A DNA stretch of 64,000 nt from NCBI RefSeq assembly GCF_030384885.1, contig NZ_CP128613.1; one strand, given 5' to 3'. Source of the DNA: Escherichia coli. Its GTDB lineage: Bacteria > Pseudomonadota > Gammaproteobacteria > Enterobacterales > Enterobacteriaceae. Below, in pieces: positions 38,054 to 38,593 of the stretch (positions are counted from its first letter, which is position 1; every line of letters begins with the position of its first letter). Under the pieces are notes generated by a model. That model was not told where the DNA came from, searched no databases, and was given only the letters and a program-made list of their open reading frames with translations. The translations under genes were made by a program, and so were the position numbers.

Positions 38054-38593
38054 ATGGATGCCATGAATATGTTTTGCTCAGTAATATTTATTTTCTTTAT
38101 TGGTTTTGCATGGATCTTCGGTTACCTCATCCGCATGATGTACCCGAAAAAAATCAGCGTTTTTACCGCTCCAGGGTTTAGCGGGACCGTTACCCTGCCA
38201 AAAGCAGGAGACTACGCGGTAACTATTACACTCCCACATAATAGCGGCATTGCGTCAAACCTGCCCGGCGCGAGTTTTTATTCAGCGCAATTTAGTATAT
38301 CTACGACTGGTAGGCAGCAAGATATTGCGCTGCAAAGAACAGGGAAGTGGGGAGCTTACTCGTGTAACAAAGATTTCAGTGGCAATAATAGCCATATTAT
38401 TGGCCTGTTTCACTGTCATCAAACTCCGGCAAATTACGACATTATCTGTACTAATCCGGAGGTCATTCACGACACCTATAAAGTGGAGATCATTAACTAT
38501 ATCTCACTTGGAAAACAGATGATGAAAACCATCCCCGGTTGGATCCTTGTTTTTATTGCGATAGGGTTACTTATTATTCCGCAAGTAAGTTAA
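38054..38593 (+). CDS. hypothetical membrane-anchored protein (179 aa)
   Basis: RBS aagga; hydrophobic segments at both the N- and C-terminus; no recognisable motif. Confidence 0.6.
   Translation: MDAMNMFCSVIFIFFIGFAWIFGYLIRMMYPKKISVFTAPGFSGTVTLPKAGDYAVTITLPHNSGIASNLPGASFYSAQFSISTTGRQQDIALQRTGKWGAYSCNKDFSGNNSHIIGLFHCHQTPANYDIICTNPEVIHDTYKVEIINYISLGKQMMKTIPGWILVFIAIGLLIIPQVS

Follow-up and report, generated by a model that had tools for sequence, protein, structure and literature searches.

The 64,000-nucleotide stretch of Escherichia coli DNA analysed here (the window) carries a gene whose 179-aa product we read, with a probability of roughly 65%, as an intact, selectively maintained small inner-membrane protein that acts alone as a membrane-held binding module, a cytoplasmic placement of its β-sandwich domain being favoured. 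The ORF starts with ATG and corresponds at the same coordinates to the RefSeq entry WP_000339828.1, a "hypothetical protein" of E. coli 2013C-4282. The gene and its product comprise:

38043-38047, + strand: Shine-Dalgarno sequence AAGGA, 6 nt 5' of the ATG (read from the sequence)
38054-38593, + strand: coding sequence of the 179-aa protein, stop codon included (ORF list, RefSeq annotation, and dN/dS against the L003 and L009 alleles)
38075-38131, + strand: transmembrane (TM) helix 1, residues 8-26 (hydropathy 2.37; AF2 helix 3-29; flanking charges)
38144-38503, + strand: central β-sandwich domain, residues ~31-150
38531-38587, + strand: TM helix 2, residues 160-178 (hydropathy 2.26; AF2 helices 152-158 and 160-178)

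The two TM segments are the maxima of the Kyte-Doolittle profile computed in 19-residue windows, and all windows between them score below 1. Ser, Thr and Gly together make up 27.2% of residues 31-155, the average E. coli protein having ~18-19%. The initial annotation, which described a signal-anchor-like N-terminal helix, a soluble centre rich in Thr, Ser and Gly and a C-terminal hydrophobic helix, agrees with both the hydropathy and the composition. The N-tail ahead of TM1 (MDAMNMF) is short and acidic and contains no Lys or Arg, with R27, K32 and K33 coming after the helix; K154 and K158 precede TM2, which is followed by a C-tail of a single residue. The absence of basic residues from the N-tail and the presence of a second hydrophobic helix at the C-terminus argue against Sec-dependent secretion with a cleavable signal peptide. 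Moreover, the first helix is followed by RMMYPKK with no AxA-like site, and it looks uncleaved. The gene has a GC content of 42% as opposed to the window average of 50%, and the ORFs on the strand opposite to it are short (53 and 62 aa).

In a word-indexed search, close matches were limited to three clusters of 179-aa proteins, with identities of 98%, 84% and 78%. The DNA of the alleles was taken for two of these three (L003 and L009) and analysed with the window allele by the Nei-Gojobori method. Because the whole-gene dN/dS is 0.16-0.20 (dS 0.38-0.73) among three allele pairs with proteins 78-84% identical, this ORF is clearly a real gene under purifying selection in the + strand frame; the gene is thus conserved, a lack of conservation being what the initial annotation had named as counting against it. 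Within the gene, dN/dS is 0.10-0.15 in the central domain (dS 0.37-1.15) and 0.5-0.8 in TM1 (dS 0.14-0.32). Intact full-length orthologues are present in several independent samples, and relatives at 20-30% identity share the length and architecture of the protein.

A phmmer search run exhaustively over 1.84 billion cluster representatives yielded 11 matches. One of these is a 178-aa relative at 51% identity, and eight are single-domain relatives at 26-35% identity, seven of them 182-196 aa long and one truncated at 158 aa, the distant single-domain members having E-values from 6e-8 to 9.5e-4. The two remaining matches are long and adhesin-like, with Ig-type repeats (Big_9, HYDIN-like) that weakly match residues 74-117. 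Profile searches gave 22 proteins with the full-length alignment and 26 with the domain-only alignment (E-values 1e-49 to 1e-68); the full-length ones span 179-193 aa, the rest being fragments, and they are called "hypothetical protein" wherever named. None of these 22-26 proteins contains a Pfam domain or a domain fusion. The named sources are Escherichia, Brucella/Ochrobactrum, P. alabamensis and the Pseudomonas nitroreducens/nitritireducens/pseudonitroreducens/nicosulfuronedens group, with a few further members from metagenomic Proteobacteria. Together, these searches define a small, previously undescribed family of single-domain proteins of 178-196 aa with a constant architecture. The 179-aa protein has the features typical of it: a length in the ~180-195 aa range, hydrophobic helices at the N- and C-termini and the conserved core positions. 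Eleven to twelve columns are counted as invariant; those invariant among the 26 aligned members are G72, A78, F80, D107, G110, G117, F119, C121, C132, P135 and I138, and G17, P31, G52, Y54 and P61 are nearly so. C121, though invariant in the 26-sequence alignment, is Gly in the orthologue of Escherichia sp. MOD1-EC7003. Among the polar motifs, (R/K)-(S/T/K)-D-(M/F)-x-G-N at residues ~105-111 is the best conserved.

The initial annotation recognised no family, and this is borne out by profile scans: the 179-aa protein has no match in the Pfam, NCBIfam, PHROGs and PADLOC libraries, and its homologues have none in Pfam, PADLOC and PHROGs. A Pfam scan of the domain-only members returned nothing but noise (E of at least 0.019), and a sequence-profile search of the PDB gave only a chance C1q match (E = 3.7). 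No phage match to the protein was obtained by tblastn, and the plasmid search produced one spurious match (E = 0.6); relatives on phage or plasmid records, as would be expected of the cargo of such elements, were not found. Foldseek comparison with the BFVD viral structures gave TM-scores of at most 0.34. The literature on yiiE/yiiF, 3NKG and fdhE hotspots contained nothing that we found useful.

AF2 modelling of the full-length protein with the 26-sequence alignment, which is shallow, gave a mean pLDDT of 80 and a pTM of 0.68. The model is a two-helix hairpin bearing a β-sandwich of ~125 residues, with helix 3-29, strands within 33-148 and helices 152-158 and 160-178. When the domain was modelled alone (residues 29-156; pLDDT 76.6, pTM 0.74), the order of the strands remained unchanged. 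The conserved residues G117, F119 and C121 alternate on one strand (112-121), and Y128, I130 and C132 on the next (126-132). We considered a disulfide between C121 and C132; this was rejected since the two strands place these cysteines at opposite ends of the hairpin and C121 is replaced by Gly in MOD1-EC7003.

Several known folds resemble this predicted structure in part. PDB 3nkg, an uncharacterised structural-genomics target from Sulfurospirillum deleyianum, shares 6-7% identity with the protein, and the PDB sequence-profile search shows no relation between the two; the likeness explains no mechanism, as 3nkg is itself without an assigned function. The eukaryotic seipin and Cdc50/Lem3 proteins have one TM helix on either side of a β-sandwich, a layout that the 179-aa protein shares according to the AF2 model and hydropathy. 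However, no structural or sequence homology to seipin or Cdc50 was seen above the level of generic sandwiches, and in these proteins, which form a ring oligomer or have a P4-ATPase partner, the sandwich faces away from the cytoplasm, whereas the charge bias of the 179-aa protein points, if anywhere, in the opposite direction. Carbohydrate-binding modules and collagen-binding/pre-peptidase C-terminal domains are also among the structural neighbours as generic jelly-roll sandwiches; these are soluble parts of secreted enzymes or adhesins, whereas the 179-aa protein is a stand-alone membrane protein with no Pfam match. Finally, the protein is similar in size and in its hydrophobic-soluble-hydrophobic layout to uncharacterised bacterial families with two TM helices around a β-rich domain, such as Pfam DUF3592; neither DUF3592 nor any other Pfam family was reported for 21 members at a cut-off of E = 10, HMMER filters dropping most matches above ~0.1.

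The orientation of the protein in the membrane was read from the flanking charges by the positive-inside rule. Over the 26 members, Lys and Arg total 12 in the N-tail, 91 in the 15 residues past TM1, 25 in the 15 residues ahead of TM2 and 25 in the C-tail. Under this rule, the bias around TM1 argues for an external N-terminus and a cytoplasmic sandwich. TM2 of the Escherichia subfamily agrees with TM1, with K154, K/R155 and K158 before the helix and an uncharged tail after it. TM2 of the Pseudomonas/Brucella subfamily mildly disagrees: its K-L-x-G-R/K-L tail carries 1-2 Lys/Arg and there are none before the helix, which argues for the C-terminus being inside. On these charges, external termini with a cytoplasmic sandwich would be preferred to the reverse at odds of about three to two. 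The reverse, with a periplasmic sandwich and cytoplasmic termini, would make the protein a binding module facing the envelope, its ligand being, for instance, a metal, an incoming toxin or a component of the cell wall or outer membrane; an orphan immunity protein would be one form of this. We hold this arrangement to be the less likely of the two. It would fit the composition of the E. coli central domain, in which D, E, K and R account for 13% of the residues and Ser, Thr, Asn and Gly are abundant, so poor in charge as to look more extracytoplasmic than cytoplasmic. It would also fit the structural neighbours, mostly extracytoplasmic carbohydrate- or collagen-binding sandwiches, the basic C-tails of the Pseudomonas/Brucella subfamily, and the immunity and toxin-antitoxin cassettes of the region, including Imm51, HigB and PIN in L012. 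However, all 25 of the 25 TM1-bearing members have 3-5 Lys/Arg right after TM1 and almost none before it, which strongly disfavours translocation of that end; the disulfide is unsupported, and a cognate toxin gene lies near the 179-aa gene in none of the contexts.

The gene is situated in the fdhE-fabY (yiiD) region of the window, which has the order fdoGHI-fdhE, yiiF (-), yiiE (-), the 179-aa gene (+), genes for two small proteins of 92 and 70 aa (-), a NadS/HigB-2-like pair (-), an alpha/beta hydrolase (+), a 637-aa protein with no family match (-) and fabY. As the initial annotation had it, the gene is divergent from yiiE, which lies upstream on the opposite strand (ORF 37587-37835; annotated as 37587-37805) and encodes a CopG/RHH_1 protein (E = 1.4e-11). 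The two are separated by the following feature:

37836-38053, no strand assigned: intergenic region between yiiE (-) and the 179-aa gene (+), 218 bp, AT-rich (35% GC)

We presume that the promoter of the 179-aa gene is inside this region. The promoter-like region shared with yiiE that had been proposed earlier did not emerge from a consensus promoter scan, which found no sigma-70-like site on the + strand of these 218 bp and a single site on the - strand (37981-37952), the total number of sites being below the shuffled expectation. The divergent pair is found in the window, L002, L003, L004 and L006. In the fdhE-yiiF spacer, an Rfam ES036 (CssrF) match at 37001-37043 (-) scores 45.8 bits, above the gathering score, and a partial naRNA4 (CssrE) match lies at 37047-37083 (+); together these are probably REP-type repeats. 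No Rfam match in a scan of 36700-41300 overlaps the 179-aa gene.

Only two of 5,426 complete genomes contain the whole gene, namely 2013C-4282 (NZ_CP027579.1, 100% identical to the window) and GF60 (86% DNA identity), the latter with a frameshift that removes TM2; a few draft genomes also carry it intact. Some part of 38030-38660 is nevertheless matched by 5,343 complete genomes. In strain 405, O157:H7 and K-12 DH1, the alignments reveal a fossil that retains the AAGGA Shine-Dalgarno sequence, the ATG and codons 1-42 (equivalent to window 38044-38180) at ~75-80% identity, with indels and an early stop. It ends at a left deletion junction, 38180, that is identical in K-12, O157:H7 and strain 405, and is joined there to the sequence just before a 3' inverted repeat (~38614-38625). 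The deleted segment and the repeat are:

38181-38613, + strand: segment missing in K-12, O157:H7 and strain 405, covering codons 43-179 and ~20 nt of 3' flank (alignments, pairwise block coordinates)
38624-38653, no strand assigned: 8-bp inverted repeat AGACCGGT / ACCGGTCT, then TTTAATTT, between the convergent 179-aa and 92-aa genes

The inverted repeat is ~93% conserved in nearly all E. coli and bounds the common deletion on the right, with matches of 42-46 nt to it in K-12-like genomes. The predicted RNA fold of 38590-38675 has an energy of -25.3 kcal/mol (z = -2.6), and a terminator scan called no canonical terminator at the repeat. Because the fossil and the left junction are common to K-12, O157 and strain 405, the alignments show what is best read as one old deletion of ~435 bp, by which the lineage ancestral to most E. 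coli lost codons 43-179. The presence of a decayed 5' fossil at a single shared deletion argues that the gene has long resided in the yiiE-fabY interval and that the window strain keeps its ancestral intact state. The initial annotation had placed it at an island border; the fossils point to loss rather than to the edge of an insertion. Escherichia sp. MOD1-EC7003 and metagenomic contigs have 50-51% identical relatives in this slot, and elsewhere in the fdhE-fabY region strains differ in the cassettes that they carry, giving a mosaic.

Comparison of the window with L003 and L002 uncovers a peak of divergence inside the gene: 38205-38500 is 75-78% identical, as against 91-100% in the flanks, and dS is ~1.15 in codons 31-155 as against 0.03 in the last 24 codons. 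This pattern suggests very old alleles that may have been shuffled by recombination with breakpoints within the gene, and it hints at re-import by recombination over a single ancient deletion with retention. The central dN/dS near 0.1 argues against positive selection as the cause of the peak.

Several observations concern the genes around this locus. The 92-aa (38661-38939, -) and 70-aa (39001-39213, -) proteins, which are basic and Cys/His-rich, travel together as a cassette; the latter matches phrog_4499, which has no assigned role (E = 1.7e-13), and in MOD1-EC7003 the pair is found on the other side of the orthologue (L028 5115-5665). Next to them, 39298-39810 (-) encodes a NadS-family HTH protein (NF041265, E = 1.2e-16) followed by a weak RelE/HigB-2-like toxin ORF, of 103 aa in RefSeq and 73 aa from a TTG start in the ORF list; these look like a toxin-antitoxin pair and are common to many E. 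coli strains in the fdhE-fabY region. None of Pfam, NCBIfam, PHROGs and PADLOC has a match for the intact 637-aa ORF (41206-43119, -; 38% GC). In RefSeq it is divided between a pseudogene and a 304-aa "transposase", the latter label looking unsupported; its counterpart is 604 aa long in L003 and is broken into two ORFs in O157. By fabY in MOD1-EC7003, a 421-aa "ORF" (L028 7120-8385) consists of tandem repeats of ~55-60 aa and is probably a REP/BIME-type array rather than a gene. The window has a second variable region beyond fdhD, at ~25850-29930 (L001 1-4083); in the place taken by yiiG and frvR in O157, it encodes an "ATP-binding protein" and a large "hypothetical protein".

A genome scan with the Escherichia-type alignment found a single species representative, Escherichia sp. 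MOD1-EC7003. The settings of the family gene across lineages are:

Escherichia sp. MOD1-EC7003 and related metagenomic contigs: the 50-51% orthologue in the fdhE-fabY region, with a gene for a 175-aa protein of no known family after it
Pseudomonas: a syntenic PPK2/catalase slot with other neighbours varying, namely GmrSD_N and HEPN, HNH and Bro-N, or, in a third genome, genes of no family
Brucella/Ochrobactrum: the family gene 66 bp 3' of argG in all of the contigs shown
Metagenomic enterobacterium-like contig L017: the family gene between rnc and era
Other contigs: the family gene after slt or beside a metallophosphatase

No neighbouring gene is conserved across the lineages examined (Escherichia, Pseudomonas, Brucella/Ochrobactrum and the metagenomic contigs). 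A 303-aa divergent neighbour in Pseudomonas was considered as a relative of the 637-aa E. coli protein and is unrelated (best BLASTP E = 2.4). In Brucella/Ochrobactrum, the stable position 3' of argG makes the family gene look more like a core than an accessory gene. The L017 member (8001-8561; 25-29% identity) is a single-gene insert between rnc and era, which normally adjoin in one operon in Enterobacteria, and is followed by a gap of ~460 bp.

These observations bear on three further explanations of the gene. That it is a functionless, decaying relic, its ORF merely still undisrupted, is improbable: its deletion in >99.9% of complete E. coli genomes, the frameshift in GF60 and the high TM1 dN/dS would all be expected of such a relic, but the overall dN/dS stays at 0.16-0.20 with dS reaching 0.73, that of the domain is lower still, full-length orthologues persist intact in independent samples, and the architecture is kept across Proteobacteria. 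Less credible still is the idea of a divergent two-gene module in which the protein would be a toxin-like or regulated partner of the RHH protein YiiE. The divergent arrangement in the window and in four other sequences is what suggests it, but yiiE is retained in thousands of genomes in which the 179-aa gene has been deleted, the 50-51% relatives are in the fdhE-fabY region with no adjoining RHH gene (the nearest in L012 being a PIN/RHH pair ~1.1 kb downstream), and no RHH gene adjoins any of the distant homologues examined. The relatives without an adjoining RHH gene and the persistence of yiiE on its own indicate that yiiE is not a conserved partner; the conserved adjacency and co-inheritance of a type II toxin-antitoxin system with YiiE as the RHH antitoxin are not observed.

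It is likewise doubtful that the gene specifies an abortive-infection-type protein that provides defence or exclusion on its own, detecting some part of a phage or plasmid through its sandwich and permeabilising the membrane through oligomerisation of its two helices. Its variable slots near toxin-antitoxin, GmrSD/HEPN or HNH/Bro-N genes in Escherichia and Pseudomonas, its frequent loss and the concentration of allelic divergence inside the gene are all in keeping with such a role. On the other hand, PADLOC, PHROG, phage, plasmid and BFVD comparisons offer it nothing, the low dN/dS is not that of diversifying selection, and the gene keeps a stable place beside argG in Brucella and is flanked by rnc and era in L017.

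We therefore return to the reading of a maintained inner-membrane binding module. The protein would work by itself as a non-enzymatic module at the membrane surface, held there by its helical hairpin, with the sandwich more probably in the cytoplasm and the termini outside. The best candidate for a contact site is the conserved polar loop with the motif (R/K)-(S/T/K)-D-(M/F)-x-G-N, D107-N111. Lost repeatedly and surrounded by cassettes for toxin-antitoxin systems and immunity, the gene suits a dispensable accessory role better than a housekeeping one. It is an ordinary uncharacterised accessory membrane protein, to which the TM-sandwich-TM layout without a family assignment and the K-12 fossil are footnotes. 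There is a slim chance that a cytoplasmic sandwich acting as a sensor, with the helical hairpin oligomerising to alter membrane permeability, constitutes a new one-gene, membrane-acting conflict or stress module, of which the protein would be the E. coli representative; were that so, K-12 would be without it through an ancient deletion of which it still bears the scar.

This analysis places a "hypothetical protein" in a small family that is now delimited, with an architecture assigned confidently, invariant positions listed and a membrane topology that can be tested; the practical value of this is modest. If a defence, immunity or lipid-handling role were true, K-12 would serve as a natural knock-out that eases complementation. 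For E. coli itself, the yiiE-fabY intergenic region of K-12 holds the fossil of a gene that is intact in rare strains. Here, a gene that appears strain-specific would represent the ancestral state rather than an acquisition, which bears on how accessory genes beside variable regions are to be read.
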